A DNA stretch of 64,000 bases, taken from IMG/VR virus record IMGVR_UViG_3300008114_000011. The stretch is one strand, 5' to 3'. How positions within the stretch are numbered: the stretch's first letter is position 1; every line of letters begins with the position of its first letter. The notes below the pieces were generated by a model, which did not search any database, had not been told where the DNA came from, and saw only the letters and a program-made list of their open reading frames with translations. The stretch is from a virus (taxonomy: Duplodnaviria; Heunggongvirae; Uroviricota; Caudoviricetes). Both the position numbers and the translations under genes were made by a program. Positions 2,387 to 42,071 of the stretch are shown in pieces.

Positions 2387-2727
2387 GTTTAGAAGATTGT
2401 TTTAACACACCATTTTTTGATTGGGTAATTGATAGTAATTATCCAAAATCAATTAAGTATTGGGATAAAATAACACATTCATTTAATAAAATGCCTCAAA
2501 GCACTCAGAAAGAATTAGAAGATGATATAGTTAAAGGAGCATTAGAAGAAATATATGATGTTCTTAAAAGAGAACCTCTTGCTGATTACTTCTGGTATAC
2601 CCATGATGGTAAACTAACTTGGACTACACCAGATTCTAAACTCGCACCTGGAGATTCATTAAGAATTAATAAAGAAAAGATTAAAGCCTTTTTTAGAGAA
2701 GAAAAATTAAATCAATTATTATCATGA
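2383..2727 (+). CDS. small protein with variant family tail (REEKLNQLLS)
   Basis: ATGA overlaps both sides; C-terminal tail variant. Confidence 0.55.
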   Translation: MSLEDCFNTPFFDWVIDSNYPKSIKYWDKITHSFNKMPQSTQKELEDDIVKGALEEIYDVLKREPLADYFWYTHDGKLTWTTPDSKLAPGDSLRINKEKIKAFFREEKLNQLLS

Positions 2728-3110
2728 ATGTCTTAAAAACCAAGAATCTAAAGTTAGAAATGATAGAAAGAATTCTAAGCTATTTAGATAGAAACAATAA
2801 ATTAAAAATAAGTGGAGATGATTTAATGGGTTATAAACCTAATCTTTACTTATTCAGTAATCCGGTTATGCCATTCATTATAACTAATATCTACTTTAAA
2901 GGAGATGTTTTAAATATAGATATTAAATCTAATGATGATTTCTATAATTATCATAATAAACCCATCTTAGAAACCATAGAAATATCACATAAAGAAGAAT
3001 GTTATAGATTGAAGTCTGACTTAAAATACTTATTAAGTATTAAAGCTCTTAGGAGTTTAGAAGGAATATTATATACAAATCATATTAGATATGAAAGTAC
3101 TTTGTATTAA
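2724..3110 (+). CDS. hypothetical protein
   Basis: ORF in coupled array. Confidence 0.5.
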   Translation: MNVLKTKNLKLEMIERILSYLDRNNKLKISGDDLMGYKPNLYLFSNPVMPFIITNIYFKGDVLNIDIKSNDDFYNYHNKPILETIEISHKEECYRLKSDLKYLLSIKALRSLEGILYTNHIRYESTLY

Positions 3111-3306
3111 TAATGATGATGTTAGTTCTATAACAGTTGGTAAGTGGTATAGAATTGCCGACCCCAAAGTATTTACTGAACAATTTAAGAATGGTAAATA
3201 TATAATATGTGATGATAAACATCGTTGGATTACTATAAGTCAAGATTTTTTTAAAACCATACAACAAATTAGAGAAGAAAAACTAAATGAATTAGGAATA
3301 TGTTAA
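3091..3306 (+). CDS. MKVLCI-type small protein with REEKLNELGI tail
   Basis: family N-core and C-tail. Confidence 0.7.
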   Translation: MKVLCINNDDVSSITVGKWYRIADPKVFTEQFKNGKYIICDDKHRWITISQDFFKTIQQIREEKLNELGIC

Positions 3307-3749
3307 TAGTTATTATATGTTTGTCTATAGCACTGGTAATCTCTGCTATAACCATATCAAACCTCCTTGATAAAAACACTACACTCAGAACAGAATTAGA
3401 TTCTGCTAAAAAGGTAGTTGTAAAAGAAAAAGAGATATTTGATATAATGCCTGGTGATACTGGGATAATAAAGGACTATGGGATTGTAAACACCAACCCG
3501 AAAAGAGATCCTGTTAAAATAGAATATAAAGTAACTTATGAGGTAACCATCTTAGAAGTATCAAAAGATAGTGTTAAGGTTACTGCTACTGATTTCTCTT
3601 CATTTGATCTTTATCCAAGAGATCCTAATAACAGACCTAGTATAATTAACTTTATGAAAGAGAAGTGGATAGATAAGAGAATAGTAGAGATAGTTGTTGA
3701 TCAGAAAAAGATCAGAGATAGAAAATTATCAGAATTAGGAATAGAATAA
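3300..3749 (+). CDS. membrane-anchored small protein with RDRKLSELGI tail
   Basis: N-terminal hydrophobic helix; family tail. Confidence 0.6.
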   Translation: MLIVIICLSIALVISAITISNLLDKNTTLRTELDSAKKVVVKEKEIFDIMPGDTGIIKDYGIVNTNPKRDPVKIEYKVTYEVTILEVSKDSVKVTATDFSSFDLYPRDPNNRPSIINFMKEKWIDKRIVEIVVDQKKIRDRKLSELGIE

Positions 3750-3759
3750 ATATAAAATA

Positions 3760-3978
3760 ATGGGAAGTGGACTAGATAAAATGTATGATGATTACGACGA
3801 CTATCAATACATTTGTAAAAATTTAGGTGAGAAATCAACTCGTGGTTACACCGAGTTCCGTTCACATGAAACTCAGGTTTTAAGAAAACACGGGTTTAAA
3901 AGTAAATATGATTATTTTGATTATTTACACAAACAAGAAGAACGAGATAAAAAGATAGAGAATATACTTAAAAGATGA
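3760..3978 (+). CDS. hypothetical small protein
   Basis: ORF. Confidence 0.45.
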   Translation: MGSGLDKMYDDYDDYQYICKNLGEKSTRGYTEFRSHETQVLRKHGFKSKYDYFDYLHKQEERDKKIENILKR

Positions 3979-4142
3979 AAATATTTAATAACCTATTATA
4001 CTTAATCGTCATATCTTTTTGGTTTTTTTGTATAATTTTTGTATCATTTATATATTTAATGACACCTAAAAAGTATAAAGATTCTCTTAGAAGAAAATTA
4101 AAGATTTTTATAAATGATTAAAAGAATTTTAATATATAACTA

Positions 4143-4403
4143 ATGAAGTATATTAAAAATTTTAAGATGCTAAAAGAGCAATCTCATAAAGAGTTGCTTT
4201 CATTAAGTGAATTAAGAAAAAAATATCCAGAAGCAGTATTGACAATGGATACTAAACCTGGAGGTTATTTCGTTAGAGTGGATATAAAGACACAAGGTGG
4301 TGAACTGAAGTATATTGGTTCTCTTAGAGGAACTGTCTCAAAAGAGAAAGCTTTAGAGTTTCTTAATTCAACAATTGATGATAATTACGATAAGTATTAC
4401 TAA
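4143..4403 (+). CDS. hypothetical small protein (N-term MKYIKNFKML)
   Basis: ORF after AT-rich intergenic. Confidence 0.5.
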   Translation: MKYIKNFKMLKEQSHKELLSLSELRKKYPEAVLTMDTKPGGYFVRVDIKTQGGELKYIGSLRGTVSKEKALEFLNSTIDDNYDKYY

Positions 4404-4413
4404 AAAATAAATA

Positions 4414-4692
4414 ATGATTATGAAATATTTACACAGATATAACGAAAGTAATGAAAATTTAGAAGGAGTTGCTCTTAAATTATATCCACCAGATCTATAT
4501 GAAGGAGATTATGGTAGCACCGAAGATTATAATAAAGATGTTAGAAATGCTTTCAAAGCTGGTGCTAAATGGCAATCAGAAAAAATGTACACCGAAGAAG
4601 ATATGAAACAATTTGGTTTATACTTAGGTGACAACCTTAAAAATTTAAAAGGTAAAACTATTGACGAGATTTTTGAAGAATTTATAAAGTAA
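4414..4692 (+). CDS. hypothetical small protein (N-term MIMKYLHRYNESNENL)
   Basis: ORF; N-terminus resembles shared MKYLKxFNE leader. Confidence 0.5.
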   Translation: MIMKYLHRYNESNENLEGVALKLYPPDLYEGDYGSTEDYNKDVRNAFKAGAKWQSEKMYTEEDMKQFGLYLGDNLKNLKGKTIDEIFEEFIK

Positions 4693-4697
4693 ATCAT

Positions 4698-4922
4698 ATG
4701 AAAGCTATTTGTATAAACGAATACGTCGGTGATACTTATATGGAACTAACTTTAGGTAAGATCTATAATGTCGTTAAAAAAGCTAAAGAAATAAAATTCC
4801 CGGATGATAAAATGAGATTCTTTATTATTAACGATGCTGGATATGGATCATACTATACGAGAAGAGTTATAATTCCATTAGATGAATGGAGAGAGAAACA
4901 ATTAAATGAATTAGGAATATGA
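4698..4922 (+). CDS. MKAICI-type small protein with EWREKQLNELGI tail
   Basis: family core LTLGKIYNV and tail. Confidence 0.7.
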   Translation: MKAICINEYVGDTYMELTLGKIYNVVKKAKEIKFPDDKMRFFIINDAGYGSYYTRRVIIPLDEWREKQLNELGI

Positions 4923-5140
4923 AAGCAATCTGCATAAGAAAATCCCACCCTGGATACTGCAAATGGGACCTCACCCCAGGAAAGGCCTACGACGTGCTGG
5001 AACAGGGGAAAGACAACAACACCGAAGAGCCGATCTACCTAATACAGGACGACGAGGGAAACACATACTGGTACAGCAAGATCACGGTGATGCCGATAGA
5101 TGAATGGAGAGAGAAAAGGCTAAAAGAGATAGGAATATGA
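4919..5140 (+). CDS. MKAICI-type family member with EWREKRLKEIGI tail, GC-rich codons
   Basis: family motifs; markedly higher GC than flanks. Confidence 0.7.
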   Translation: MKAICIRKSHPGYCKWDLTPGKAYDVLEQGKDNNTEEPIYLIQDDEGNTYWYSKITVMPIDEWREKRLKEIGI

Positions 5141-5189
5141 AAAAGATATTCATCTATAAAGTGAGACATATTGATTCAAAAAAGGAAGA

Positions 5190-5432
5190 ATGAAAGTTAT
5201 TTGTATAAACAACCATATGGATCAGATTCCACTTACTATGGGAAAAGTCTATGATATCAAACAAAGATTTTATAGATATGATTTTTCAAATATGAAATCT
5301 TTGTTTGATATAGAAGGAAAAGAACATTTTTCTATAAAGAACAACAAAGGTAAGGAATCTTGGTATACTAGAGAAGAAGTAGTTCCACTAGAAGAGTGGA
5401 GAGAAATTAAACTTAATGATTTATTAAAGTAG
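5190..5432 (+). CDS. MKVICI-type family member (tail EWREIKLNDLLK)
   Basis: family motifs. Confidence 0.65.
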   Translation: MKVICINNHMDQIPLTMGKVYDIKQRFYRYDFSNMKSLFDIEGKEHFSIKNNKGKESWYTREEVVPLEEWREIKLNDLLK

Positions 5433-5434
5433 TT

Positions 5435-5626
5435 ATGGAAATAAAATTTATTGAAAGTCACTCCTTCTTAGGGGAAGAAATGACTATGATAGTTAATGGT
5501 AATCATCACCGTTTAGAAATGAATAGGATGACATATGCTCAACATGCTGTAAAGATATTGAAAGATATTTATGATATTGATTTCAAACTAGAAGATGTTA
5601 AGTTTGAATGGGATGGGTATTTATAA
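5435..5626 (+). CDS. hypothetical small protein
   Basis: ORF. Confidence 0.4.
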   Translation: MEIKFIESHSFLGEEMTMIVNGNHHRLEMNRMTYAQHAVKILKDIYDIDFKLEDVKFEWDGYL

Positions 5627-5659
5627 AAAATTTGTTAATCACTAAAAAGAATTAGGAAT

Positions 5660-5887
5660 ATGAGAACATATGAAGAGTTAGTACCAGAGTTTGCTAGTAA
5701 AGGTAGAGAAGAGAAACAGAAATGGATTGATGAACTACCCATAGAAGAAATTAAAGTTCTTATAAATGGATTGAAGGGTGTTGCTTACACTGGTATATGG
5801 GATTCTTGGATTGAGTATATGGAAATGATTATACTTATAAAGATTGAATTGGAAAGAGAAAGGAAACTAAATGAACTTGGTATATGA
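5660..5887 (+). CDS. small protein with RERKLNELGI tail
   Basis: family tail; ATGA coupling. Confidence 0.65.
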   Translation: MRTYEELVPEFASKGREEKQKWIDELPIEEIKVLINGLKGVAYTGIWDSWIEYMEMIILIKIELERERKLNELGI

Positions 5888-6231
5888 TGTTAGAAGACTT
5901 TTTAAAATTTGTAAAAGATATTGGATTCACTCTCACTATTATAAGAGATGAGTTTATCTACCTTTCTTATGGAAGATACACGATAACCATATACAATCCG
6001 GAAGAACATAGTGGATTCGAAAAAAGATATAGTCTGGGGTTTAAAAAAAATGAACACAACGTTACATATATCACAAGTGGTTCCGAAACAACTTTGAGTA
6101 GGACTACCATTTGGCTTGGCGAAAAAGTCACGTCTAACAAGATAAACTTCAAATTAGATGACTTTGAAGTACTTGAAAATGAATTCAAAGATATTATTAG
6201 AGAAAGGAAACTAAATGAACTTGGTATATGA
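5884..6231 (+). CDS. small protein with RERKLNELGI tail
   Basis: family tail. Confidence 0.65.
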   Translation: MMLEDFLKFVKDIGFTLTIIRDEFIYLSYGRYTITIYNPEEHSGFEKRYSLGFKKNEHNVTYITSGSETTLSRTTIWLGEKVTSNKINFKLDDFEVLENEFKDIIRERKLNELGI

Positions 6232-6470
6232 ATGAGTTTAGAATAGGAGATATCGTAGTATGTATAGAAGGTGGAACAAATATACCATTCTCAGAAGGGA
6301 GATATCTAACGGAAGGTAAACAATATGAGATACAATCACTTAAATATTTAAATGGTAGAACCTATATATTCATAATTAACGATAGAAGGGCCAGGGAGAT
6401 ATATGATGTGAAAAGGTTCCGAAATTTTCAGAGAGAAAGAGATAATAAACTAAATGAACTTGGTATATGA
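6228..6470 (+). CDS. SH3/KOW-like small protein (GDIVVCIEG) with RERDNKLNELGI tail
   Basis: family tail. Confidence 0.65.
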   Translation: MNEFRIGDIVVCIEGGTNIPFSEGRYLTEGKQYEIQSLKYLNGRTYIFIINDRRAREIYDVKRFRNFQRERDNKLNELGI

Positions 6471-6700
6471 AAGTAGGAGACTTAATAAAACCCATCAACG
6501 GATTTAAATTTGGTAAAGGTAAAATGGAAATAATACAGATAATACCAGATACTAATATATCATCCGGACGAATACTCGTGAAGTACCATAATAGATCTAC
6601 ATTAAATAGAGAACCTTTAATGTCCTGGGAAGCCGCAGATGAATTTGTAGTAGATGTGGAGAGAATGAGAGATGAGAAATTAAACGAATTAGGAATATGA
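6467..6700 (+). CDS. small protein (MKVGDLIKP) with RDEKLNELGI tail
   Basis: family tail. Confidence 0.65.
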   Translation: MKVGDLIKPINGFKFGKGKMEIIQIIPDTNISSGRILVKYHNRSTLNREPLMSWEAADEFVVDVERMRDEKLNELGI

Positions 6701-6948
6701 ACGTAGGAGATTGGGTTAAGATAAGAAACATGGTAATGAAACCACACATTAAAATGAGAATAATAGAAATGAGGAAATACGTCGATCCGAACACATCCAC
6801 CAACTTCGTTATCGATCAGGTTCGCGTGAGGTACTATGATAAATGGTGGGTCAACGGAAAGGATATGTCTGGCTGGGAAAATGCATACGAATACGAATTG
6901 GATGTGGAGACAATGAGAGAAGAGAAACTTAAAGAACTGGGTATATGA
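6697..6948 (+). CDS. small protein (MNVGDWVKI, DUF2158-like start) with REEKLKELGI tail
   Basis: family tail. Confidence 0.65.
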   Translation: MNVGDWVKIRNMVMKPHIKMRIIEMRKYVDPNTSTNFVIDQVRVRYYDKWWVNGKDMSGWENAYEYELDVETMREEKLKELGI

Positions 6949-7235
6949 AAGATTTAAGAATAAACCAATCAACATTCCCACTTAAAAATGGTGGCACTGG
7001 TGTAATAGCAATATTCATGTATGCCGGTGATGAAGATCCAAAACCTATATTAGAAGATGCTATAAGAAAATATACCGAAGGAACTGATAACTACGATACC
7101 TTTATTGATGCTCAAATGAATTGTCCATGGGTAAGAGTAATCATAAGTGGTATAAGTGAAATGGAACAAATGAATTTTAATGACTTTATAGTTCAATGGA
7201 GAAGAGATCAAAAACTAAATGAACTTGGAATATGA
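6945..7235 (+). CDS. small protein with RDQKLNELGI tail
   Basis: family tail. Confidence 0.65.
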   Translation: MKDLRINQSTFPLKNGGTGVIAIFMYAGDEDPKPILEDAIRKYTEGTDNYDTFIDAQMNCPWVRVIISGISEMEQMNFNDFIVQWRRDQKLNELGI

Positions 7236-7591
7236 TAAAAGTTAGGGCTATATTAAAAAGAACCGGTGAAGAATTTAACATAGATATAATAAGAACTTCT
7301 AAGGCAATGCCTGGTTCCATTACAATAAACGTTAGAGATTTAGAAAATAAACTAAATATTGTAAGTGTAAGATATGAAGAAGAAGAAAGACCAAAAGTTT
7401 GGAATGCCGACGGAACCCCTAAATATATTAGAATAGAAACTTTCCATGAGTTTAATAAATATTGGGATGTTATTTGGGTTGATGTTGATAGTTATGATAG
7501 ATTAGGATCTAATAAAGAAAGATATGAGATGATATATGGGAGCTTTAAAAGAATCATAAGAGATCAAAAGTTAAATGAGCTTGGTGTATGA
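7232..7591 (+). CDS. small protein with RDQKLNELGV tail
   Basis: family tail. Confidence 0.65.
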   Translation: MIKVRAILKRTGEEFNIDIIRTSKAMPGSITINVRDLENKLNIVSVRYEEEERPKVWNADGTPKYIRIETFHEFNKYWDVIWVDVDSYDRLGSNKERYEMIYGSFKRIIRDQKLNELGV

Positions 7592-7782
7592 ACGATTTAC
7601 CGAATGATTTCGAAGAACTTATGAAAATTCTCTCAAAAAAGAGAAGTTCCGAACGTGATAAGAATAGGATAAAAGAAATCGATGATTTGACGAAATCATT
7701 TAGAGAGATGAGGTCAAAGAACAATTCTTTAAAAAGAAAGGGGTTTATTGAGAAGATTTTCCTATATTTGTATAAACATTAA
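7588..7782 (+). CDS. hypothetical small basic protein
   Basis: ORF coupled by ATGA. Confidence 0.4.
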   Translation: MNDLPNDFEELMKILSKKRSSERDKNRIKEIDDLTKSFREMRSKNNSLKRKGFIEKIFLYLYKH

Positions 7783-7787
7783 AGGAT

Positions 7788-8084
7788 ATGAGTAATTCTA
7801 AGAAGAAATCTTTAGAAAAGATAAGATTAAAAAATAGATACTTATCTGATCTTCATAAAAAACAGAATGAAGATTTTATGAAAAGTATAGGTAAAAATAT
7901 AGGTGAGTTTGTAACTTGTAAAAAAAGTCTTAAAGCACCTGGATTACTTGGTGGTTTCACAAAAGGTATATCATATAAAATACTTGGCTTTTGTGGTGAA
8001 CATGTTTGTTTATTAGATGATGAGAATAAAGAATATGATTCCATGGATTTATCCTTAAATTATTATAAAGAGTATTTTTATTAA
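7788..8084 (+). CDS. hypothetical small protein
   Basis: ORF. Confidence 0.45.
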   Translation: MSNSKKKSLEKIRLKNRYLSDLHKKQNEDFMKSIGKNIGEFVTCKKSLKAPGLLGGFTKGISYKILGFCGEHVCLLDDENKEYDSMDLSLNYYKEYFY

Positions 8085-8096
8085 ACAAAGACTAAT

Positions 8097-8318
8097 ATGA
8101 TAACAGAATACTCAACAACCGAACCAATAGTTACTAAAAGAGATATTATTAGATTAACCGTAAATATCATTCCGGTTGACTTTTATGTAGATGAAATAAT
8201 AGATGGAATTCCACAAATAAGTATTCTATTACCTTATCTCAATAATGTTGAATATACAGAGTATAGATTAGGAGCTACTCAACCTTTAAGAACAGGACAA
8301 GAATATGAAAAACTATAA
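8097..8318 (+). CDS. hypothetical small protein
   Basis: ORF. Confidence 0.4.
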   Translation: MITEYSTTEPIVTKRDIIRLTVNIIPVDFYVDEIIDGIPQISILLPYLNNVEYTEYRLGATQPLRTGQEYEKL

Positions 8319-8344
8319 CACATAATTTACTTTTAATATGGTTT

Positions 8345-8569
8345 ATGAAAGAAGGTGATATTGTTTTTTGTATTGATTCATCTGATCATGGTAAGAAACA
8401 GAAATTAACTTATGGTAAAGGATATACAATTAAAAGAATTGATAATTATAAATTAAATTCAAGTATATCCATTAAAAATGATAGTGGTGTAATTGGTATT
8501 TATAATTTTAATAGATTTATAACTCTCAAAGAATGGAGAGATAAGAAACTAAAAGAACTTGGGTTATGA
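8345..8569 (+). CDS. family member (LTYGKGYTI core, EWRDKKLKELGL tail)
   Basis: family motifs. Confidence 0.7.
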   Translation: MKEGDIVFCIDSSDHGKKQKLTYGKGYTIKRIDNYKLNSSISIKNDSGVIGIYNFNRFITLKEWRDKKLKELGL

Positions 8570-8835
8570 AAATGGTTTGTATAACAAATAAAATAAAAGG
8601 AAAAAACTTATCCAACCAATTAGTTGTTGGTAAAGAGTATGATTTCAAAGTGCAAGACTATGGTAGACTAACAAGTAATAGATATTGCTCTGTTTATTAC
8701 TATTGTACAAATGTTAGAGATAAATCAAATGCTTGGATAAGATTTACCGGTTCTGGTGGAGTTGATTGTATTTGGAGATGGTTTTCAACTAAACAGAATA
8801 TTAGAGATCAAAAACTAAAAGAGATTGGGATATGA
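8566..8835 (+). CDS. MKMVCI-type member with RDQKLKEIGI tail
   Basis: family motifs. Confidence 0.65.
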   Translation: MKMVCITNKIKGKNLSNQLVVGKEYDFKVQDYGRLTSNRYCSVYYYCTNVRDKSNAWIRFTGSGGVDCIWRWFSTKQNIRDQKLKEIGI

Positions 8836-9032
8836 ATGTAGATGAAGATTTACTAAGATATTTTATTATACATTCACAAGGAATTAAACACGACGGTCCT
8901 TTATTTGATATCAGATTACTTGGTAATTCAATTATGTTTAGACTGAATCCTAATAGTGGTGCTTATGGTGTTGATTATAACTACTATAAGAGTTTATTAA
9001 GAGATAAGAAACTAAAAAATCTTGGGATATGA
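8832..9032 (+). CDS. small protein with RDKKLKNLGI tail; shares ~70-nt near-identical segment with 15463-15535
   Basis: family tail; PLFDIRLLGNSIMFRLNPNS segment duplicated elsewhere. Confidence 0.65.
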   Translation: MNVDEDLLRYFIIHSQGIKHDGPLFDIRLLGNSIMFRLNPNSGAYGVDYNYYKSLLRDKKLKNLGI

Positions 9033-9262: not shown

Positions 9263-9481
9263 ATGAAGAAAGTAAAATGTAAACAATGTGATTGTGAAAT
9301 ATTTCATGAATATACATCAATAGAAAGTCTAAACACTGGCTTTTGGTCTAAAAAAAAGAAAGAGAAATATATATCTGAACTTGAACAGATACCATCAGAA
9401 ACATGTCATACTTCAATATATTTAACATGTGGTAATGGTCATTTCGATAATTACTTCTGTAATGTAGAAACTCGTGATTAA
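9263..9481 (+). CDS. Cys-rich small protein (CKQCDC..CHTS..CGNGH)
   Basis: ORF with zinc-ribbon-like cysteines. Confidence 0.45.
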   Translation: MKKVKCKQCDCEIFHEYTSIESLNTGFWSKKKKEKYISELEQIPSETCHTSIYLTCGNGHFDNYFCNVETRD

Positions 9482-11559: not shown

Positions 11560-11823
11560 ATGAAAAGAATACTTTTAGGAATAGCAATCGGTATAACCGT
11601 AATCACTACATTATCAATGACTATTAGTGGTGCAACGAATGATAATAGATTTGGTGGAAACAGTGGTGTTATGTTAACTGTACCTGCTAAACCAACTTCG
11701 ACGGTATATGTAGGATACGATCAATTAAATAAATATCTACAAAAGGGATATCAAGTACAACAAGTAGTGACTGGTGATTATAATGAACCAAGAAATCATA
11801 GTTTCTTAATGGTTAAATATTAA
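11560..11823 (+). CDS. small secreted/membrane protein (signal-peptide-like N-terminus)
   Basis: hydrophobic N-terminus MKRILLGIAIGITVITTLS. Confidence 0.5.
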   Translation: MKRILLGIAIGITVITTLSMTISGATNDNRFGGNSGVMLTVPAKPTSTVYVGYDQLNKYLQKGYQVQQVVTGDYNEPRNHSFLMVKY

Positions 11824-11856: not shown

Positions 11857-11950
11857 TATTTGTTTTAGTCAGGTGGCGGAATTGGTAGACGTTATTAGAG
11901 GTAAATCCATGTAGGTAAAATCGAAAGGTTCTCATACAGGTTCGAGTCCT
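11857..11950 (+). tRNA. tRNA-like gene (long-variable-arm type; GGCGGAATTGGTAGAC D-arm, GGTTCGAGTCC T-arm)
   Basis: acceptor AGTCAGG/CCTGACT pairing, canonical D and T arms; anticodon arm not resolved by eye; TAnnTTTG box immediately upstream. Confidence 0.5.
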
Positions 11951-12125
11951 GTCCTGACTACGAGGTTCTAACTATGTGTGGTTTTGTGTATTACATAGGG
12001 TGAGGTTTAGTAAATACCATTTATTGAATAAAAAATACACGCCAGGGCGGAAATGTAACTTAATACAACTGGGTTGACCTTGATCAGGTGTTACGTGAGT
12101 TCAAATCTCAATCTGTCCACTAAAT

Positions 12126-12215
12126 AGTCAGATCGTCTAATGGTAGGACGGCTAGATGACTCAGATACTGATTCTGAAAATTTTGCTTATATAGGTTCGA
12201 ATCCTTTTCTGACTA
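12126..12215 (+). tRNA. tRNA-like gene (D-arm CGTCTAATGGTAGGACG, T-arm GGTTCGAATCC)
   Basis: acceptor AGTCAGA/TCTGACT pairing; long extra arm; anticodon not resolved. Confidence 0.45.
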
Positions 12216-12224
12216 CGAACATGG

Positions 12225-12449
12225 TTGCTAAATAATATGAAAGACGAAATTAGAAAAATCATTGAGAGTGGTAATAATACTGATGATATTGTTGATAATA
12301 TATTAGAGTTATTAAAGAATAAATCAATAGTGGTTTATGATACTCGAGATAATATTGAATGGAAAAAAAATTTAAAACATATATTATTAGATAATAAAAA
12401 GTATGTTTTATATCCGAATAGAGAAAGAATTATAATTACTTGTGTATGA
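12225..12449 (+). CDS. hypothetical small protein
   Basis: ORF directly after tRNA-like gene. Confidence 0.4.
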   Translation: MLNNMKDEIRKIIESGNNTDDIVDNILELLKNKSIVVYDTRDNIEWKKNLKHILLDNKKYVLYPNRERIIITCV

Positions 12450-12506
12450 AGGGTAACTTCATAGATGAAATTAAGTTTGTGGGTATAACAGATTAAAACC
12501 CTCGTT

Positions 12507-12672
12507 AGTCAGGTGGCGGAATATTAACATCCCCGTTCTAGTTGTAAAAATAATGTGGTTAGAATCCACTACGGGGACAATGTTAATTTGGTAGACGCAC
12601 GAGAAGTACAATCGACAAGGCGGCCCTATAAACGGGAACGAGTGTGTACAGGTTCGAGTCCTGTTCTGACTT
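12507..12672 (+). tRNA. tRNA-like gene interrupted in the D-loop by a ~66-nt inverted-repeat insertion
   Basis: GTCAGGTGGCGGAAT[insert]TTGGTAGACGC...GGTTCGAGTCCTGTTCTGACT; insert ATTAACATCCCCGT...ACGGGGACAATGTTAAT. Confidence 0.4.
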
Positions 12673-12674
12673 CT

Positions 12675-12992
12675 ATGAGATCTATTAAAAAGGTCACCGA
12701 ATTATTTTATTTGGTGAATGAAAAAAATGATTATTCCGGTGAATACGATATAGAAATATTGTCAGAGATTACAGGGGAGGATTTTGATGATGAATCTATT
12801 GGAATATTTACAATAGATTCAAACAATACAATCGATGATGATTTTATATCAATCCGTCGTAAAACGATTTCAAGTGAACCATTTTTCTCTGAGGAGAAGA
12901 CAATATTCTATGAAGAGATACATCGAATAAGTATGAACGAATATAAGACATATTTAAGAGATAAGAAGATAAGTGAATTATTAAAAAAATAA
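12675..12992 (+). CDS. hypothetical protein with variant tail (RDKKISELLKK); ORF-track start 12555 overlaps tRNA-like gene
   Basis: internal ATG at 12675 after tRNA 3' end. Confidence 0.45.
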   Translation: MRSIKKVTELFYLVNEKNDYSGEYDIEILSEITGEDFDDESIGIFTIDSNNTIDDDFISIRRKTISSEPFFSEEKTIFYEEIHRISMNEYKTYLRDKKISELLKK

Positions 12993-13578: not shown

Positions 13579-13956
13579 ATGTATAGAGAGTTCAAAAAAG
13601 GAGAAACATACCACGTAACATCAATCAGAGTTGATGGTACTGAAGGCTTTAGTATATTTAGACCCAACTCAACACAAAATGTATTCGACTCTATAATAGA
13701 TTGCCAAAGCTTCTCTAATATGAATAACCACTGGCACAAAAATAGTGTTGTATTCATTAGAAAATCAGATGGGGCCAACACTTACCCCTGGACATTAGGT
13801 GAAGGTACTTCTGTATGGAATAGACCAACTCGTCTTGCGACCGAACAAGAAAAACTAATATTAGATTCTGTACTACAAAGAGACGAGGCTCTAACAACTG
13901 CTGAAATTAGAGATATAAAGATTAATACCATTCTAAGTAAAAATGAAAAAAATTAA
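13579..13956 (+). CDS. hypothetical protein with decayed family tail (EIRDIKINTIL...)
   Basis: ORF. Confidence 0.45.
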   Translation: MYREFKKGETYHVTSIRVDGTEGFSIFRPNSTQNVFDSIIDCQSFSNMNNHWHKNSVVFIRKSDGANTYPWTLGEGTSVWNRPTRLATEQEKLILDSVLQRDEALTTAEIRDIKINTILSKNEKN

Positions 13957-14281
13957 AACCTGGTTCATTTATAGAACATATAAATTATTTTATAATGCAC
14001 CTGCTCCTAAATTTAAAATAGGTGACTCTGTTGTAACAGATGGTTATCTTAATACTAATGGTTATAAAATTGAAGGTGAAATAATCTCTATGAGATATAA
14101 TAAGCATGATAATATGTGGTTATGTGTAGTTAAGGATAATACACCATTTGAAAATAATCATACAACCAGTATGGGTTATGAATTTGACATTGATTTTCTA
14201 ACACTTACATTTCAAGAAGATCAATTACTACCTAGTAAATCTTATATTAGAAATAAAAAATTGGAAGAGTTAGGTATTTAA
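13943..14281 (+). CDS. small protein with RNKKLEELGI tail
   Basis: family tail. Confidence 0.6.
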   Translation: MKKIKTWFIYRTYKLFYNAPAPKFKIGDSVVTDGYLNTNGYKIEGEIISMRYNKHDNMWLCVVKDNTPFENNHTTSMGYEFDIDFLTLTFQEDQLLPSKSYIRNKKLEELGI

Positions 14282-14866: not shown

Positions 14867-15116
14867 ACTAAGTATTGGAGACTTCGTCAAATATAAATCT
14901 CATCCAAGTATATCACATTTCACTCGTAAATATCATAGAGGTCAGATAATCGATATCATAGAACCTTATACATGTCCTCATACCGGATCTCCTGAACCAG
15001 GTTCGATAACCATAGTAAGAGAAGATGGTTCTATAAACACAGACTATCATTATGTATTCGAATTAGATAGGGAGAAAATGAGGGATGATAAACTAAAGGA
15101 ATTAGGAATATGTTAA
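14853..15116 (+). CDS. small protein with RDDKLKELGI tail
   Basis: family tail. Confidence 0.65.
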   Translation: MMENKLSIGDFVKYKSHPSISHFTRKYHRGQIIDIIEPYTCPHTGSPEPGSITIVREDGSINTDYHYVFELDREKMRDDKLKELGIC

Positions 15117-15388
15117 AAGATATTATGACCGCAAAGCTGATTGCCAAGGAAGACTACTTCCTAACGCTCGACCTGGGATATAAAAATCCCACCCCCAACA
15201 AGGTGCTCACGAGAGGGAAGATCTACGAGTGCGAGGACATCTCCGGGACATCCCCTGATGATTTCCCTGATTATGACAAGTACTACAAGGTGATCGGCGA
15301 CGACGGAAACCGTCTGACCCTTGGCAAAGGAAGGTTCTTCTCCATAGAAGAGACGAGAGAAATGAAGCTGAAAGAAATTGGACTATGA
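15110..15388 (+). CDS. family member with REMKLKEIGL tail, strongly GC-rich codon usage
   Basis: family tail; GC-rich island. Confidence 0.65.
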   Translation: MLKDIMTAKLIAKEDYFLTLDLGYKNPTPNKVLTRGKIYECEDISGTSPDDFPDYDKYYKVIGDDGNRLTLGKGRFFSIEETREMKLKEIGL

Positions 15389-15872
15389 AACTCAAGATAG
15401 GAGATTGGGTCTTGCCGAAGAACCACATACGACAAAGCCCGCACATCAAAATGAAGGTCATAGACACGAGGGTCCTTTATTTGATATTAGATTAGTTGGT
15501 AATTCAATTATGTTTAGACTGAATCCTAATAGTAGAATTAACGATTTAGTTGAAACTATTGGATTCAAAATAAATAAACTATTAATTGATAACATTGCAT
15601 CAAAGAGTAGATTAGAAGTATTGGAATTCAGAAAAGGAAATATTTCAATCAAACTGGAAGCTACTAATTTTGGGAATAGATATGATTTTTTAATAAGTGA
15701 AGATGTTGAATACTCATATAATAGAAATGATATTGAAAAAAGAAGAGATCCAGGATTTAGATATACTGGATCCAGATTAGTCGGTACAGATACCAAAATC
15801 GATTATGGTTATATTAAATATGATTCATTTACATTAAATCTAAGTTCTTCACAAACTGAACCAGATTTTTAA
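15378..15872 (+). CDS. chimeric ORF containing PLFDIRLVGNSIMFRLNPNS segment; coding status uncertain
   Basis: ORF track; no family tail; mosaic. Confidence 0.3.
   Translation: MDYETQDRRLGLAEEPHTTKPAHQNEGHRHEGPLFDIRLVGNSIMFRLNPNSRINDLVETIGFKINKLLIDNIASKSRLEVLEFRKGNISIKLEATNFGNRYDFLISEDVEYSYNRNDIEKRRDPGFRYTGSRLVGTDTKIDYGYIKYDSFTLNLSSSQTEPDF
15385..15495 (+). pseudogene. truncated family member (MKLKIGDWVLPKNHIRQSPHIKMKVID..., homolog of 6697..6948 N-terminus)
   Basis: 36-codon ORF matching GDWV..KPHIKM+IIE then running out of frame into a segment copied from 8832..9032. Confidence 0.4.
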
Positions 15873-16308: not shown

Positions 16309-16638
16309 ATGGCATCATCCAGAAAACGAAGACTTAAAATTAAAAAAGGTGAAACTCATAAGAGTATAGAAATTAAATATTGTAAGCCAGAAATATCTAT
16401 ACAACATACTCGTGAATATTCAAAGATATTTGTTGAATGGGAAGATAAAAACGAAAAATCAGAAGATCTACGTAGAGAAGGTAAATACCATATAGTGTCA
16501 TATACTTATAGAAATAAACAAGAGTTGGATGATAATATCCAAAAGATCTCCGACTTAAAGAATATATTCCCATATCTAAGTATAAAATCATCACTTATTA
16601 AGTATTTGAAAACTCTAAGACCATTATCATATGTTTAA
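16309..16638 (+). CDS. hypothetical basic protein
   Basis: ORF. Confidence 0.4.
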   Translation: MASSRKRRLKIKKGETHKSIEIKYCKPEISIQHTREYSKIFVEWEDKNEKSEDLRREGKYHIVSYTYRNKQELDDNIQKISDLKNIFPYLSIKSSLIKYLKTLRPLSYV

Positions 16639-16870
16639 AAAGGGAGATATATTAATTGCTAAAACGAGCTCAATTTATAATAACCATAATAAATTGACTA
16701 TTGGTAAAGAATATGTAATAAAAAATACATATGGTGGTCTAAATATTTATGATGATACTTTAAAAGCTTGGTTCTTTTCTCCAGATGAATATGATATTCA
16801 TTACTATGGGAAATTCTTTTATACCAAAGAGGAGTTGAGAGATATGAGATTATCCACTTTACTTGAATAA
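16631..16870 (+). CDS. family member (LTIGKEYVI core, RDMRLSTLLE tail)
   Basis: family motifs. Confidence 0.55.
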   Translation: MFKKGDILIAKTSSIYNNHNKLTIGKEYVIKNTYGGLNIYDDTLKAWFFSPDEYDIHYYGKFFYTKEELRDMRLSTLLE

Positions 16871-18699: not shown

Positions 18700-19062
18700 A
18701 TGAATACCACCAATATTTTAAATAAGTTAAAAGATTTCTTAGAGAAACATGATTATGTAAAAGATGCATTCCCTGAAATCTTAGAGAAACATAATGTAAC
18801 CAATATTAAATCAGAGTTCGCTGATAAACTGGATACAATAACAGATCCATTCGAAAGACTTATAGTAGGAATGCATATGGTGGACCTCATCGATGAAGAC
18901 CAGGCAGATGATCAAGTCCTATCCGACCTAAATGAAAGACACCAATCTCTTATTAAGGTTTGGTTATATATGAATGATAACAAAATACAAAGAGCAGAAG
19001 AATCTTTAAGAGTATATCTGGCTCAGATAAGAGATTCGAGACTTACACATTTAGGTATATAA
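18700..19062 (+). CDS. small protein with RDSRLTHLGI tail
   Basis: family tail; TAnnTTTG box upstream. Confidence 0.55.
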   Translation: MNTTNILNKLKDFLEKHDYVKDAFPEILEKHNVTNIKSEFADKLDTITDPFERLIVGMHMVDLIDEDQADDQVLSDLNERHQSLIKVWLYMNDNKIQRAEESLRVYLAQIRDSRLTHLGI

Positions 19063-23107: not shown

Positions 23108-23386
23108 ATGAAAACTACCGAAGAATATAAAATGGATACTTTCCGTATGTGGGAAGGAGACTGCCACCCAGCTATATACAAGAAAAATAAAAAAGGTGAA
23201 TGGGATTACCTATTCCTCGTCAGTAGCAAAGAAGAGGGACAGGCATACCTGGAAGACCACTCCACCATAAAGAGACGATACATTCAGGACCGCGTACTAA
23301 TCTACACCCTTTTCGTGATACCAGCGTCAGCTCTGTTGTTATGGTCAATAATAGTAGGTATATTGGCAGTAACCGGGAATATGTAA
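23108..23386 (+). CDS. small membrane-anchored protein, GC-rich
   Basis: ORF; C-terminal TM. Confidence 0.45.
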   Translation: MKTTEEYKMDTFRMWEGDCHPAIYKKNKKGEWDYLFLVSSKEEGQAYLEDHSTIKRRYIQDRVLIYTLFVIPASALLLWSIIVGILAVTGNM

Positions 23387-23728: not shown

Positions 23729-23932
23729 ATGGACCAACAAATGAATATTATATGTATAGCTGAAGGTACTTACAAAATAACTAAAGGCAAGACCTACCAA
23801 GTAAACGCACATTCAACTCACCAATATTGGATCATAGATGATGAAGGTCATATGCAATTGATAGGTAAAGACTTTTTCAGAACACAACAAGAAATAAGAG
23901 AAGAGAAGTTAAATGAACTTGGAATAATCTAA
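23729..23932 (+). CDS. family member (NIICIAEGTYKITKGKTYQV, REEKLNELGII)
   Basis: family motifs. Confidence 0.65.
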   Translation: MDQQMNIICIAEGTYKITKGKTYQVNAHSTHQYWIIDDEGHMQLIGKDFFRTQQEIREEKLNELGII

Positions 23933-24500: not shown

Positions 24501-24731
24501 TTGTTATGTGCCGTTAAATTTCACAAAATGAGATACGAAGAAAAAATTATCGAACACACAGAAGAAGAAACAGACTTCTTACCACTCAAAGAAGCAATAG
24601 TGAATATCGAATTTTCTCAAGGTGACTTGATTGAAATGAGAGATATTTTAAGACAATTTAAGCCTAATTTATGGGCAAAAGGATTGTTGTCAGATATAGA
24701 AGCCACACTCGAAAAGGTGTCGGTGTATTAA
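24501..24731 (+). CDS. hypothetical small protein
   Basis: ORF between two GC-richer non-coding segments. Confidence 0.35.
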   Translation: MLCAVKFHKMRYEEKIIEHTEEETDFLPLKEAIVNIEFSQGDLIEMRDILRQFKPNLWAKGLLSDIEATLEKVSVY

Positions 24732-24871
24732 TGGCCCGTTTTGCGGTTTTGTGTTAGGCTACGAAGCCTTGGCATTGAGCGGTCGAGCAGCTTGCACAAA
24801 ACCGCTGTTATACGCTGGCACGGGTAATTTAGTAGGAACTTAATTTGAAACACAAATAAAAATCAAAAGCA

Positions 24872-25174
24872 ATGGCAACAGTAATTTATGAAATACCAAA
24901 CTCCGTAAAGGAAATGTTTGAACAAGGCGAAAATAGTTATCGCATTATTGACTATTCAATACAGGAAATGGATAACATCCAAAGTATGCAACATTTCCTT
25001 GACTGTATAGGTGCAACAACGGATAATATCGAAACAGATGATGGAACGCAAGTAGTAGTAATTCATCCCGATTTTGACCACAAACTTGTAATTGATAGTG
25101 GTGGGTTGGGTGATTTTTATTCTCACGGTTATGACGTAACTCTCTATTCGGAAACGGTCAGTAGTGCTTGTTAA
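24872..25174 (+). CDS. hypothetical acidic protein
   Basis: ORF. Confidence 0.4.
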   Translation: MATVIYEIPNSVKEMFEQGENSYRIIDYSIQEMDNIQSMQHFLDCIGATTDNIETDDGTQVVVIHPDFDHKLVIDSGGLGDFYSHGYDVTLYSETVSSAC

Positions 25175-29258: not shown

Positions 29259-29275
29259 TAAAATAATTTACAAAG

Positions 29276-29644
29276 ATGAAAGGTAAAAATAACATACAAA
29301 GTTTCGAAGAGTTTAAAGAAAACTTGAATATATCTGATGTTAGTGAGAGTAAAACTATTGGAGATATAATAGATGATAACACTAAAGATTCTAATGGATT
29401 TTTTTGGGGTGTATTTTCTGATACTATGAATTTTTTCATTGTTGATAAGGGGTTTAATGTTATATTTGAAACACCTGCGTTTTTTAATGGAAAATGGACA
29501 AATGATGTAAAAGAAGCAATGAAAAAATATGGAATAGACGACAACAAATCAAGAATGAGAACTGATAATAACATAGAAAAATTAAAAAAATCCATTAAAC
29601 TAGAATATGATTTATGGAAAATGTATAGTGATAGAACTAAATAG
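29276..29644 (+). CDS. small protein with conserved N-terminal leader (..FEEFKENLNISDVSES)
   Basis: leader shared with 28969..29217. Confidence 0.5.
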   Translation: MKGKNNIQSFEEFKENLNISDVSESKTIGDIIDDNTKDSNGFFWGVFSDTMNFFIVDKGFNVIFETPAFFNGKWTNDVKEAMKKYGIDDNKSRMRTDNNIEKLKKSIKLEYDLWKMYSDRTK

Positions 29645-29969: not shown

Positions 29970-30770
29970 ATGAAAAAGACAAATTATTACGAAATTTGTA
30001 ATCAAAAATTGAAGTATTTAAACTATTCAGATAGGACTATCAAGTCCTATCTTTATTATATTAATCAATTTTTAGAAAATACTAAAATACCACCAACCAG
30101 ATTAACAGCAACAGATTTCCAACAATATCTCAATAATTACAATTTTACCTCCACCTCACAACAAAATCAAGTCATAAACTCAATAAGATTCCTATACAAA
30201 GAATCACTTAATAAAAAATATGATAAGGTTGATTTTAAAAGACCTAGATCTGAAAAGAAACTACCAAAAGTAATTGATGGCGATTATATCAAATCTAAAC
30301 TTTCTAAAATAGAAAACCTTAAGCATAAAACTATACTTACTTTAACCTATTCAGTTGGTTTAAGAGTTTCCGAAATAATAAATCTTAAAATAGAAGATAT
30401 TGACTCCAAAAGAATGATTATTCATATTAAAAATGCTAAAGGTAAAAAAGATAGAATTGTACCACTTTCAGAAAACGTACAAAATCTAATAAAAATATAT
30501 TCAGAAAAATATACACCAAAAGAATATCTTTTTAATGGTCAATCCACAAACAAATATTCAATACAATCCTGTCAAAATATCTATAAAAAATATATTGATG
30601 AAAATTCATCTATACATACCCTCAGACACTCAGCCTTTACCAACCTCTTAGAAAATGGAACAGATCTAAGAATAATACAGAAAATAGCAGGTCACTCATC
30701 CACCAAAACAACAGAGATATATACACACGTTTCTAATCAACTTTTAAATAAAGTTAATCTACCAATTTAA
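29970..30770 (+). CDS. tyrosine recombinase/integrase (XerC/D-like)
   Basis: C-terminal catalytic block HTLRHSAFTNLLENGTDLRIIQKIAGHSSTKTTEIYTHV (R..H-x-x-R..Y). Confidence 0.85.
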   Translation: MKKTNYYEICNQKLKYLNYSDRTIKSYLYYINQFLENTKIPPTRLTATDFQQYLNNYNFTSTSQQNQVINSIRFLYKESLNKKYDKVDFKRPRSEKKLPKVIDGDYIKSKLSKIENLKHKTILTLTYSVGLRVSEIINLKIEDIDSKRMIIHIKNAKGKKDRIVPLSENVQNLIKIYSEKYTPKEYLFNGQSTNKYSIQSCQNIYKKYIDENSSIHTLRHSAFTNLLENGTDLRIIQKIAGHSSTKTTEIYTHVSNQLLNKVNLPI

Positions 30771-30794: not shown

Positions 30795-31256
30795 ATGATT
30801 ATATTTGTATATAATCACACACATAATATGATAAAGTTTGTTAAGAAGTCGAGTTCGGGGTCTACAAAAGAGGTGGATTTAATATTATCTGATGTTAGTA
30901 ATTGTAAATCATTAGCATCTTCTATCTTATTAAGAAAATATTTAATGGAGATGGATGTGGATTATATAGAGAAGATGGATTTGATTAATAAACGTATTGA
31001 GTTTAGTAGAAGTTATTTAGAGAGTGTTTTATCTCGTGATGGTGATATTAAGTGTACTTATTGTGGTAAGGGAGATTTGGTTATTGAGTATGATGGGATG
31101 CGTGTCAAAGAAAGTATAAAGGCTACGATTGATCATATCGTTCCTGTATCAAGAGGAGGAGGTAGGTTTGATGTTAGTAATATAACTCCATGTTGTGGTG
31201 AGTGTAATGGTAAGAAGGGTAATAAGTCATTAGATGATTTTCTAAAGTCGATTTAA
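30795..31256 (+). CDS. HNH endonuclease
   Basis: CTYCGK...IDHIVPVSRGGGRFDVSNITPCCGECNGKKGNK. Confidence 0.7.
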   Translation: MIIFVYNHTHNMIKFVKKSSSGSTKEVDLILSDVSNCKSLASSILLRKYLMEMDVDYIEKMDLINKRIEFSRSYLESVLSRDGDIKCTYCGKGDLVIEYDGMRVKESIKATIDHIVPVSRGGGRFDVSNITPCCGECNGKKGNKSLDDFLKSI

Positions 31257-31946: not shown

Positions 31947-32242
31947 CATTAGAAGAGTTAAGAGAAAAGTCTTTAGAAGAAAAGGTGAATTATATTTTTG
32001 ATTATGTTACGTCTTATGCTCGTGAAAGAGAAGATAGGTTTAAAGATATACCTTTACGTGTATTAATTGATGAGTATGATGATATAATTGATGTTTTCAG
32101 AGAAGTTAATTATGGTCTAAGAAGATTTTGGAGTCAACCCGGATATCGAGCAAGTATTGAATATAAGAGAGAAGTAGTTAAGGGAGTTTTAAATCATGAA
32201 TTGTTATTCCCACGTATAAAAGAAGAAATATCAAAGTTATGA
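31943..32242 (+). CDS. hypothetical protein, tandem paralog B
   Basis: near-identical N- and C-termini to 31647..31946. Confidence 0.55.
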   Translation: MTLEELREKSLEEKVNYIFDYVTSYAREREDRFKDIPLRVLIDEYDDIIDVFREVNYGLRRFWSQPGYRASIEYKREVVKGVLNHELLFPRIKEEISKL

Positions 32243-32565
32243 GAGTGGTAACTGAAAGCCCAGAGAACTGGGTTATATTAAAAATTGACGGTGTTGATGG
32301 TGTTTACTATCGAGTTTTCGGTGGTTGGCGTGGTGGTTATGCCGGCAGTGATCGTTGGAAGATGAACTCTGGTATTGTTAAGGTGGAATCTGATAGTGAT
32401 TACTATTACTTTATAGGAGCTAGTGGTAGTTGTTATAAATGTCACAAGGAGAGTTATGCTGGTTTCAGTGGTTGGGTTTATGGAGTTTTGTCTAAGATAA
32501 TGGATGGAAGTCCGGTTCCTATTGAGGTTTTAGATGAAATGAATTTTGAGGAGTTAGGTATTTAA
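32239..32565 (+). CDS. hypothetical protein ending ..EELGI
   Basis: ORF; partial family tail. Confidence 0.5.
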   Translation: MRVVTESPENWVILKIDGVDGVYYRVFGGWRGGYAGSDRWKMNSGIVKVESDSDYYYFIGASGSCYKCHKESYAGFSGWVYGVLSKIMDGSPVPIEVLDEMNFEELGI

Positions 32566-32604
32566 TTTATTATACGGAATTTGTAAATTAAAAAAGATAT
32601 TAGG

Positions 32605-32865
32605 ATGAAAGATGGGATGGTTCAGTGTGTATCAAATGGTTGTGGTTATTACAAGAGTTTGAAGGTTGGTAAGTGGTATAAATTTAGAGAGGTATCTGAT
32701 TTAGTGGTCCCACCTCGGCTCGAAGGTCAATATTTAATTTACTTTGATGATTATGTTTCTGGACCAAAGGGTTCTCAAATGCTCAGATGTTCTTATCCAA
32801 AGAAATTATTTAGAACGGTTTCTGATAGAAGAGATTTTAAACTTAAAAAGATCGGTGTAATATAA
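32605..32865 (+). CDS. family-like small protein (LKVGKWYKF core, RRDFKLKKIGVI tail)
   Basis: family motifs; GC-richer. Confidence 0.5.
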   Translation: MKDGMVQCVSNGCGYYKSLKVGKWYKFREVSDLVVPPRLEGQYLIYFDDYVSGPKGSQMLRCSYPKKLFRTVSDRRDFKLKKIGVI

Positions 32866-35236: not shown

Positions 35237-35674
35237 ATGAGTTATACAAAAGAAGAATTTTACAAAGCGTTTATTGAAACGCAAAAGTTAACAGGTCAGG
35301 GAACATCTGGAATTGTTAAAGTTGCTGGTGGTCCAACAATCGCAAAGATACTTGATGATTTAATCGAAGAAGGTCTTTGCGTGGCTGAGAATACTGGTGG
35401 TTCATTAGGTCACCCAGAGTCTAATATCTTTTACATGCCATCAAAAGGTTATAATGTTTGGCGAGAAGAAAACAGTATGGCGGCGTTAGAGTGTGTTAGG
35501 TATTACATTGCTAAACAAAGAGGTGAGAAATATAGTGGAGATCGTTTCTTAAAGATTGACGAGAGTTCGTTTGAAGAAGGTGGTCCATTCCACGAGTTCT
35601 ATAATAATTGGTTAGAACGAAATAGAGAGGAGTTAGATGTGATGATGAATCTATCAGATGTTTATCCGAATTAA
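35237..35674 (+). CDS. hypothetical protein
   Basis: ORF followed by terminator hairpin. Confidence 0.45.
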   Translation: MSYTKEEFYKAFIETQKLTGQGTSGIVKVAGGPTIAKILDDLIEEGLCVAENTGGSLGHPESNIFYMPSKGYNVWREENSMAALECVRYYIAKQRGEKYSGDRFLKIDESSFEEGGPFHEFYNNWLERNREELDVMMNLSDVYPN

Positions 35675-41820: not shown

Positions 41821-42071
41821 AGATTGATATCGATGTAATGAGGAAGATACTAATTATCTTAAAAGAAGAAAACACAGCAAATGTAAATGATATTTGGTTT
41901 GATGATTGTGTTGAGGTTATTAGACTTAGAGAAATCCACGTAGAAATGTTATCAGTTGATTTATTCCACCCGGAACGCAGAATAATGGGTAATTTTTATT
42001 TCGGTAAATGTAGAGTTAATGAGGTTTTAAGAAAAGAAAGAGAAAATAAATTAAATGAGTTAGGTATTTAA
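41817..42071 (+). CDS. small protein with RENKLNELGI tail
   Basis: family tail. Confidence 0.6.
   Translation: MKIDIDVMRKILIILKEENTANVNDIWFDDCVEVIRLREIHVEMLSVDLFHPERRIMGNFYFGKCRVNEVLRKERENKLNELGI

Follow-up and report, generated by a model that had tools for sequence, protein, structure and literature searches.

The gene at 4919..5140 is very probably a xenolog, received recently by the paralog array of a phage of 28% GC from a related phage lineage whose GC content is about 50%. The stretch of DNA analysed, called the window hereafter, comprises 64,000 nucleotides of a member of the Caudoviricetes (IMG/VR record IMGVR_UViG_3300008114_000011). The case is a clear, two-way and well-resolved instance of phage mosaicism and not a new kind of system; mosaicism itself is well known, and here the donor lineage was identified. 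Since donor and recipient differ so widely in GC content, the direction and recency of an exchanged tract, and its breakpoints to within a few nucleotides, can be read from the sequence.

Composition and junctions of gene 4919..5140

The ORF 4919..5140 lies on the + strand, runs from ATG to TGA and encodes a protein of 73 amino acids, MKAICIRKSHPGYCKWDLTPGKAYDVLEQGKDNNTEEPIYLIQDDEGNTYWYSKITVMPIDEWREKRLKEIGI. A preliminary description had noted a GC-rich gene with GC-biased codons amid AT-rich flanks, and both observations held on recomputation. The GC content of the gene was 0.473, against 0.279 in the upstream flank (4400-4918), 0.269 in the downstream flank (5141-5660) and 0.285 in the whole window, which corresponds by our own arithmetic to 105 G+C in 222 nt where 63 are expected (about +6 binomial SD). 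The sliding-window profile proposed at that time as a check was not uniform: 200-nt windows had a mean GC of 0.285 (sd 0.049) and peaked at 0.50 at 4919..5140, the sole higher peak being at 15041-15510 (0.52). GC at third codon positions (GC3) reached 0.62, an outlier of about 5 SD among the 143 ORFs of the window (mean 0.215, sd 0.079, median 0.197), and the GC excess is located at synonymous sites. Codon usage was scored as a per-codon synonymous-codon log-likelihood ratio (LLR) of a GC-lineage table versus the window table. The gene scored +1.17 per codon, where the window median is -2.02 (sd 0.61); its copy in the GC-rich contig L004 scored +1.19, a value typical of the genes of that contig (+1.0 to +1.96). 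Both the base composition and the synonymous codon usage of the gene thus deviate from those of the resident genome, as a xenolog would.

The neighbours of the gene are native paralogs of AT-type composition. Upstream, 4698..4922 (+ strand; GC 0.289, GC3 0.23) shares 40% amino-acid identity with 4919..5140, and its TGA overlaps the ATG of that gene to form the left junction; the exact 4698..4922 protein was found on 8 contigs from 4 sources. Downstream, the family alignment also includes 5190..5432 (+ strand; GC 0.272, GC3 0.23), whose coding sequence contains at 5254-5311 (+ strand) an inverted repeat whose 21-nt arms are 95% complementary and lie 16 nt apart. The retention of the family core and tail, as first described, was seen in the same alignment: the 4919..5140 protein carries the core MKxICI..LTxGKxYxV..DDxG..EWRExxLxEIGI and the tail. 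The ATGA coupling ascribed to the gene was borne out for the upstream overlap, while the downstream ATGA opens merely a stub of 18 codons. This stub, 5137..5193 (+ strand; translation MKKIFIYKVRHIDSKKEE and a stop), keeps ATGA overlaps at both ends, its own TGA overlapping the ATG of 5190..5432. Its counterpart in the alignment is ATGAAAGTCATCTGCATAAGAGAT, with which the next paralog of the donor opens (MKVICIRD...), and the stub is identical in all assemblies of the AT-rich lineage and in the short contig L001. The stub is the decayed 5' end of that paralog and marks the right breakpoint.

Both breakpoints could be placed closely. On the left, donor-type sequence starts at the ATG and is preceded by the tail of the native paralog, ...GAATTAGGAATATGA, with recipient/donor identity limited to GGAATATGAAAG. 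No family-type tail (...ELGI) was found directly upstream of the gene in any donor context recovered as DNA, so that crossover homology on this side is documented for only 12 nt around the ATG. To the right of the TGA, the window reads ATGAAAAAGATATTCATCTATAAAGTGAGACAT, which can be aligned to the start of the paralog that comes next in the donor, then continues with AT-type sequence up to 5190; the right breakpoint falls about 35 nt inside that paralog. The gene is bracketed by a 64-nt repeat of the tail/ATGA/head junction (family D1 of the repeat search), with a left copy at 4872..4935 and a right copy at 5090..5153 (both + strand), the latter formed by the import's own tail and the head of the stub. 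The two copies are 77% identical and match exactly over 20 nt (TAGATGAATGGAGAGAGAAA) and again over 13 nt (TAGGAATATGAAA), which makes short-homology recombination at family junctions plausible.

Copies in two phage lineages and other exchanged tracts

The exact 4919..5140 protein was found in a public collection, where it belongs to a 90%-identity cluster of ten sequences, and it is encoded on 8 contigs, four of which are 50-200 kb long. The copies recovered as DNA fall into two groups. Group A, the AT-rich lineage, consists of the window and of L002 (NCBI GCA_031544975.1), L003 (JGI 3300008264), L008 (NCBI JACCDY assembly) and L016 (Logan SRR12685669); its loci have a GC content of 29-30%, with 26-30% in the 1-kb flanks of the gene, and its gene copies lie 0-2 nt apart, with identical junctions on both sides in at least five assemblies. 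Group B, the GC-rich lineage, comprises L004/L007 (one 36-kb contig, JACCDW010520324.1, of which the analysis covered 14 kb), L005 and L009-L015, with locus GC of 43.5-51.7% and flanks near 50%, the exception being the upstream side in L005 (0.38). The higher-GC homologs whose search had been advised were therefore found, in metagenomic contigs of a 47-52% GC lineage: at least ten of these contigs carry copies 96-97.3% identical in nucleotides to the gene of the window, a near-identical gene in a lineage whose genome has the composition of the island. In group B the gene heads a tandem trio, being followed by two paralogs of the same composition (82-86% nt identity), and is preceded by an HNH gene, by a gene of 116/123 amino acids downstream of an SHMT gene, or by an intergenic region. 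These composition-matched contexts bear out the preliminary proposal of a recent acquisition by recombination with a higher-GC relative.

Group B is a phage lineage related to that of the window and not unrelated DNA. It has the same ATGA-coupled arrays of small genes with ...KLKELGI tails as the window, and backbone orthologs of the two lineages, such as 9263..9481, 11560..11823, 16309..16638 and 16631..16870 in the window, share 39-72% amino-acid identity at a GC content of 0.26-0.31 (window) versus 0.48-0.57 (group B). Because these orthologs have diverged so far, the islands stand out as recent. The gene itself differs from the donor-lineage copies by 1.4-4% in nucleotides and its GC3 equals that of the donor (0.62 vs 0.61), which shows that the transfer was recent and was not followed by amelioration. 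The closest copies with full GC-lineage context differ at 6-9 of the 222 sites, and none of those sampled is the exact donor.

Searches of other collections returned distant relatives at most. The region 4000-9000 had no nucleotide match among GenBank phages, and the protein gave two weak tblastn matches there (33-38% identity), in uncultured phage records of 630-640 kb. IMG/VR contained one distant family member (L006, 34% identity, locus GC 65.6%) and no matches to the flanking genes, and a scan of JGI metagenome DNA returned just one further short contig. A more distant relative of about 30% GC, L022, has an ortholog of the upstream gene (73% aa identity) after which the gene is absent, and its gene order differs generally; this locus was the sole yield of the search for an empty site, which returned no clean one in close relatives of the AT-rich lineage.

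Four more GC-rich islands had been listed in the preliminary description, and they proved to be of different kinds. The island 15110-15470 was upheld, with a GC content of 0.468, a GC3 of 0.62 and an LLR of +0.78. It corresponds to a second GC-type tract, 15124..15471 (+ strand), made of gene 15110..15388 and of 86 nt from the start of the gene that follows it in the donor; the tract is 92.5% identical in nucleotides to L004 5727-6086 and has the same donor lineage as 4919..5140. On the left, the tract ends at the start codon; on the right, it stops 86 nt inside that following gene, at a microhomology (ACACGA(C)GG, about 8 nt) shared with a native paralog of 8832..9032, which indicates that the conserved junction is not required for exchange. 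The join removes the N-terminus of the native paralog, and translation of the donor fragment comes to a dead end after 36 residues, MKLKIGDWV...TRVLYLILD followed by a stop. A 73-nt duplicate shared by 15461-15533 and 8885-8957 (94.5% identity, GPLFDIRL[VL]GNSIMFRLNPNS) links the truncated gene to 8832..9032.

The GC-rich segment 6780-6900 (GC 0.463) was likewise recovered, inside a mosaic ortholog, 6697..6948 (+ strand), whose 5' third is AT-type and whose remainder is close to L004 6000-6260. The identity is 82% in nucleotides overall, with near-identical blocks from about 6770 onwards and a diverged 5' part; the whole gene has a GC3 of 0.49 and an LLR of -0.14. For 23108-23386, the deviant composition stood in a milder form and a shared origin found no support. 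This gene (+ strand; GC 0.416, GC3 0.46, LLR -0.01) encodes a 92-aa protein with a hydrophobic C-terminus, and no close donor was found among the contigs searched: its best matches outside the AT-rich lineage were 79.8% in nucleotides with L017, part of a 187.7-kb contig of a third lineage of about 34% GC, and 77% with L021, a contig of 47% GC. The region 32239-32865 had to be dropped as an island of codon usage: its GC content is 0.357 with a GC3 of merely 0.26-0.30 and a raised GC1, so that its GC is driven by amino-acid composition. Further 200-nt peaks of at least 0.40, at 12441-12730, 24591-24930, 35281-35570 and 51951-52380, were no GC3 outliers.

One tract points the other way. The AT-type gene 6228..6470 (+ strand; GC 0.31) has its counterpart at L004 6780-7022, which has a GC content of 0.32 and a GC3 of 0.235 amid a background of about 50% GC. 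Only 4 mismatches separate the two between the ATG and the last 5 codons, and BLAST gave 94.2% identity over 277 nt including flanks; this gene has moved from the AT-rich into the GC-rich lineage. The same GC-rich contig also contains, at about 2400-4000, a 1.6-kb block of 26-33% GC with AT-type codons (LLR about -2). Just 86 nt of this block match the window (29261-29346, 87%), so that its source was a different AT-rich relative.

Probable route and direction of the transfer

The gene would have been transferred by recombination in a co-infected cell, and we infer that both lineages co-infected one host. The most likely mechanism would be recombination through short homology or microhomology, using the conserved tail/ATGA/head junction with its exact blocks of 20 and 13 nt. 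Selection would then retain those recombinants in which gene boundaries and translational coupling are preserved. By the same process, no fewer than three further tracts have passed from one lineage to the other, in both directions.

A homing endonuclease could instead have driven the import: a donor HNH enzyme would, during co-infection, cut an HNH-less junction in the AT-rich phage and repair would copy donor DNA, the tract being the gene with or without the HNH gene, which was lost afterwards or never included. We consider this account unlikely, while a role of the HNH gene in the transfer is possible. An HNH gene does abut the gene in L004, in L001 and in one 5.3-kb contig, as co-conversion would require of the donor, and its absence from the same spot in other donor contigs indicates that the HNH gene is itself mobile. 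The protein variant P0009 ends in the tail '...ELGIADG', like the 78-aa paralog that precedes the HNH gene in L004 (9232-9468), which suggests, as judged from the P0009 protein only, that the HNH cassette adjoins other family members too. The 477-bp contig L001 carries the closest allele of all (98.6% identity to 4919..5140, 3 differences) and brings together an HNH gene of GC type, an allele that is GC-type in its 5' part and window-type in its 3' part, and an AT-type stub, the pattern expected from homing with co-conversion. The window also has its own HNH endonuclease gene at 30795..31256 (+ strand; Pfam HNH, 5.8e-11). This gene is 84.3% identical in amino acids and 79.4% in nucleotides to L004 9518-9976, with a GC content of 0.31 versus 0.51, and is the AT-composition ortholog of the HNH gene found immediately upstream of the GC-rich gene in some donor contigs. 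The shared HNH gene is fully adapted to the composition of each lineage, in contrast to the unameliorated islands. However, no HNH gene lies at or near 4919 in five assemblies of the AT-rich lineage, most donor contigs lack one beside the gene (it is absent in L009-L015), and none was found near the counterpart of 15124-15471 or the reverse tract in L004. Moreover, L001, at only 477 bp and with at least 85 identical nt shared with both lineages, could be either a real recombinant or a short-contig assembly chimera.

Preferring recombination from the GC-rich lineage into the AT-rich one also means weighing the opposite direction and an origin in a bacterial host, which together we regard as very improbable. 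Two-way traffic at neighbouring genes speaks for a reversed transfer, but the composition and codon LLR of the gene fit the GC-rich lineage and not the AT-rich one, and the GC-rich lineage has tandem paralogs of the same composition as well as more alleles (0-6 differences among copies) and more contexts. Only at gene positions 67-72 does group A have states of its own (GCC TAC), and these match paralog 2 of the GC-rich lineage. These features taken together indicate a transfer from GC-rich to AT-rich. A host origin is unsupported, since a search of 185,579 representative genomes of bacteria and archaea returned no relative of the gene.

Still less credible is selection for GC in place without any transfer, for instance for translation efficiency, for an embedded RNA structure or for avoidance of nucleases or defence systems, akin to the non-AT-biased maintenance of selected copies first suggested as an alternative. 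The gene is indeed intact and conserved in 15 of 15 copies. Such maintenance is nevertheless superfluous and fails to explain an identity of 96-98.6%, synonymous sites included, to copies in GC-rich genomes, and the adjacent members of the family have the usual AT-type codons. The island showed no excess of RNA structure on either strand (folding z +0.46 and +0.97) and no Rfam match, and a structured RNA inside it was rejected. Least probable of all, with a negligible chance, is a chimeric join with reads of a co-occurring GC-rich phage: mixed reads are conceivable, as both lineages occur in assemblies with JACCD and JACCE prefixes that suggest a single submission, but for an artefact to arise the assembly would have to switch twice in 256 nt, at points where just about 12 nt are shared. 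Identical junctions recur in the window, L002, L003, L008 and L016, at least five assemblies made independently and drawn from NCBI, JGI and Logan, with 8 contigs involved, four of them of 50-200 kb. This effectively rules out the assembly chimerism that had been named as a possible refutation.

Protein family, known systems and the phage

The AlphaFold model of the 4919..5140 protein (pLDDT 87.8) has five strands and a C-terminal helix, and its predicted five-stranded barrel superimposes on solved SH3 domains; the protein is thus predicted to be an SH3-like small beta-barrel with a C-terminal helix. It may serve as a dispensable accessory binding module of the hyperplastic region of the phage. 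A profile built from the window paralogs matched 3,423 clusters (50% identity) at E <= 0.001 and 282 at E <= 1e-10, most matches being 60-90 aa long with the same tail and some being long proteins with 3-16 barrel repeats. Among eight of these multi-repeat relatives scanned, six matched Pfam DUF6501 (up to 1.8e-20), three of those also matching DUF7244. The family itself gave only sub-threshold matches in Pfam and PHROGs: the 4919..5140 protein matched DUF6501 (PF20111) at 14.6 bits (E 0.031), below the gathering threshold of 23.8, and the paralog 23729..23932 scored 23.3 bits (5.7e-05). The weak matches to DUF6501 and DUF7244 (PF23896) cover the barrel core, whereas the helix tail conserved at the C-terminus, R[DE]xKLxE[LI]G[IL], is absent from these models. 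The family, very large and unnamed, groups small SH3-like phage proteins that have the C-terminal tail in common.

The tail decapeptide R[DE]xKLxE[LI]G[IL] is common to proteins with unrelated N-terminal parts. It occurs in at least 27-31 ORFs of the window, for example 3091-3306, 5660-5887, 5884-6231, 6945-7235, 7232-7591, 13943-14281, 18700-19062 and 41817-42071, and in many of them the stop codon lies in an ATGA overlap with the start of the next gene. A string search of the literature for the decapeptide found no description of it. In the GC-rich lineage, 14 of 16 tails keep the GGA-ATA-TGA end, and tail GC3 is 0.36 versus 0.63 in the gene bodies, the remainder of these tails having some lineage-typical codons. 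The helix is probably conserved as protein, with the last two codons constrained by the ATGA overlap as well.

Several known systems resemble the present one in part. Morons of lambdoid phages, as Hendrix, Juhala and colleagues are said to have described them, are single inserted genes whose base composition sets them apart from the conserved genes on either side. Like them, 4919..5140 is a small, phage-derived gene of foreign composition between two residents, with breakpoints at or near gene boundaries. Classical morons come with a promoter and a terminator of their own and have no kinship with the adjacent genes, whereas this gene is a paralog of its neighbours and leaves no intergenic space. 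A reading as a moron was rejected: ATGA overlaps are present at both ends and no promoter- or terminator-like site flanks the gene. Across the region, a scan with a sigma-70-type consensus only gave 19 promoter-like sites versus 22.7 expected in shuffled sequence, and there was 1 terminator-like site versus 1.1 expected. An integron-type cassette was also rejected, with no inverted repeat at 4872-4935 or 5090-5153, right breakpoints inside the next gene and not at a fixed site, and the sole tyrosine-recombinase-like ORF of the window, 29970-30770, 25 kb away. This integrase-like ORF (+ strand; phrog_1, 2.4e-40) lies directly 5' of the HNH gene 30795-31256.

The amelioration framework for horizontally acquired DNA, attributed to Lawrence and Ochman, was reportedly developed for bacterial chromosomes. 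The import retains the GC3 of its donor and the older shared HNH gene matches the composition of each lineage, as in that framework; here, in contrast, the partners are related phages more than 20 GC points apart that exchange DNA both ways. In T-even phages, free-standing homing endonucleases (Seg and Tev enzymes) bring about co-conversion of flanking markers. A free-standing, variably present HNH gene beside the gene in some donors recalls this system, but the recipient site has no endonuclease gene and other exchanged tracts have none nearby. Cassettes in the hyperplastic regions of T4-type phages are reportedly shuffled via repeated promoter/stem-loop (PeSL) junctions, as Arbiol et al. 2010 are said to have proposed. 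Co-oriented arrays of small genes, a repeated junction sequence and single cassettes swapped between related phages are common to both cases, whereas the junction here is coding (C-terminal helix tail, ATGA and N-terminal head) and some breakpoints bypass it.

The conserved coding junction, made of the C-terminal R[DE]xKLxE[LI]G[IL] helix, the GGA-ATA-TGA/ATG overlap and the MK[AV]ICI head, might act as a portable cassette boundary that allows single mini-genes to be swapped, with their coupling kept, between lineages more than 20 GC points apart. We hold this idea to be tentative and rather doubtful. If it were true, frequent two-way exchange would imply that the 28% and about 50% GC lineages replicate in the same host cells, and if they share host cells, base composition would be set by phage-intrinsic mutation bias and not by the host. 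The pair of lineages offers a natural system for the rate at which imported DNA ameliorates, the homology needed by phage recombination and host sharing across GC contents.

As for the phage, 118 of the 143 ORFs of the window lie on one strand. The window encodes a nicotinamide phosphoribosyltransferase whose best matches in GenBank phages (45-46% aa identity) include Tenacibaculum phage PTm1, and a 574-aa protein (56025-57749, + strand) with a type IX secretion C-terminal sorting domain (Por_Secre_tail, 1.5e-09); this domain and the PTm1 match hint at a Bacteroidota host. At 59137-61158 (- strand), matches of adjacent ORFs to intein splicing and LAGLIDADG domains suggest a gene interrupted by an intein. 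Two tRNA-like elements, at 11867-11960 and 12126-12215 (+ strand), scored 35.2 and 40.3 bits against the Rfam tRNA model and are called by ARAGORN in neither case. The second has about 19 extra nt in the region of the anticodon arm; the first, at 94 nt, is similarly over-long and is 99% identical to L017 18960-19058, in the phage lineage of about 34% GC.
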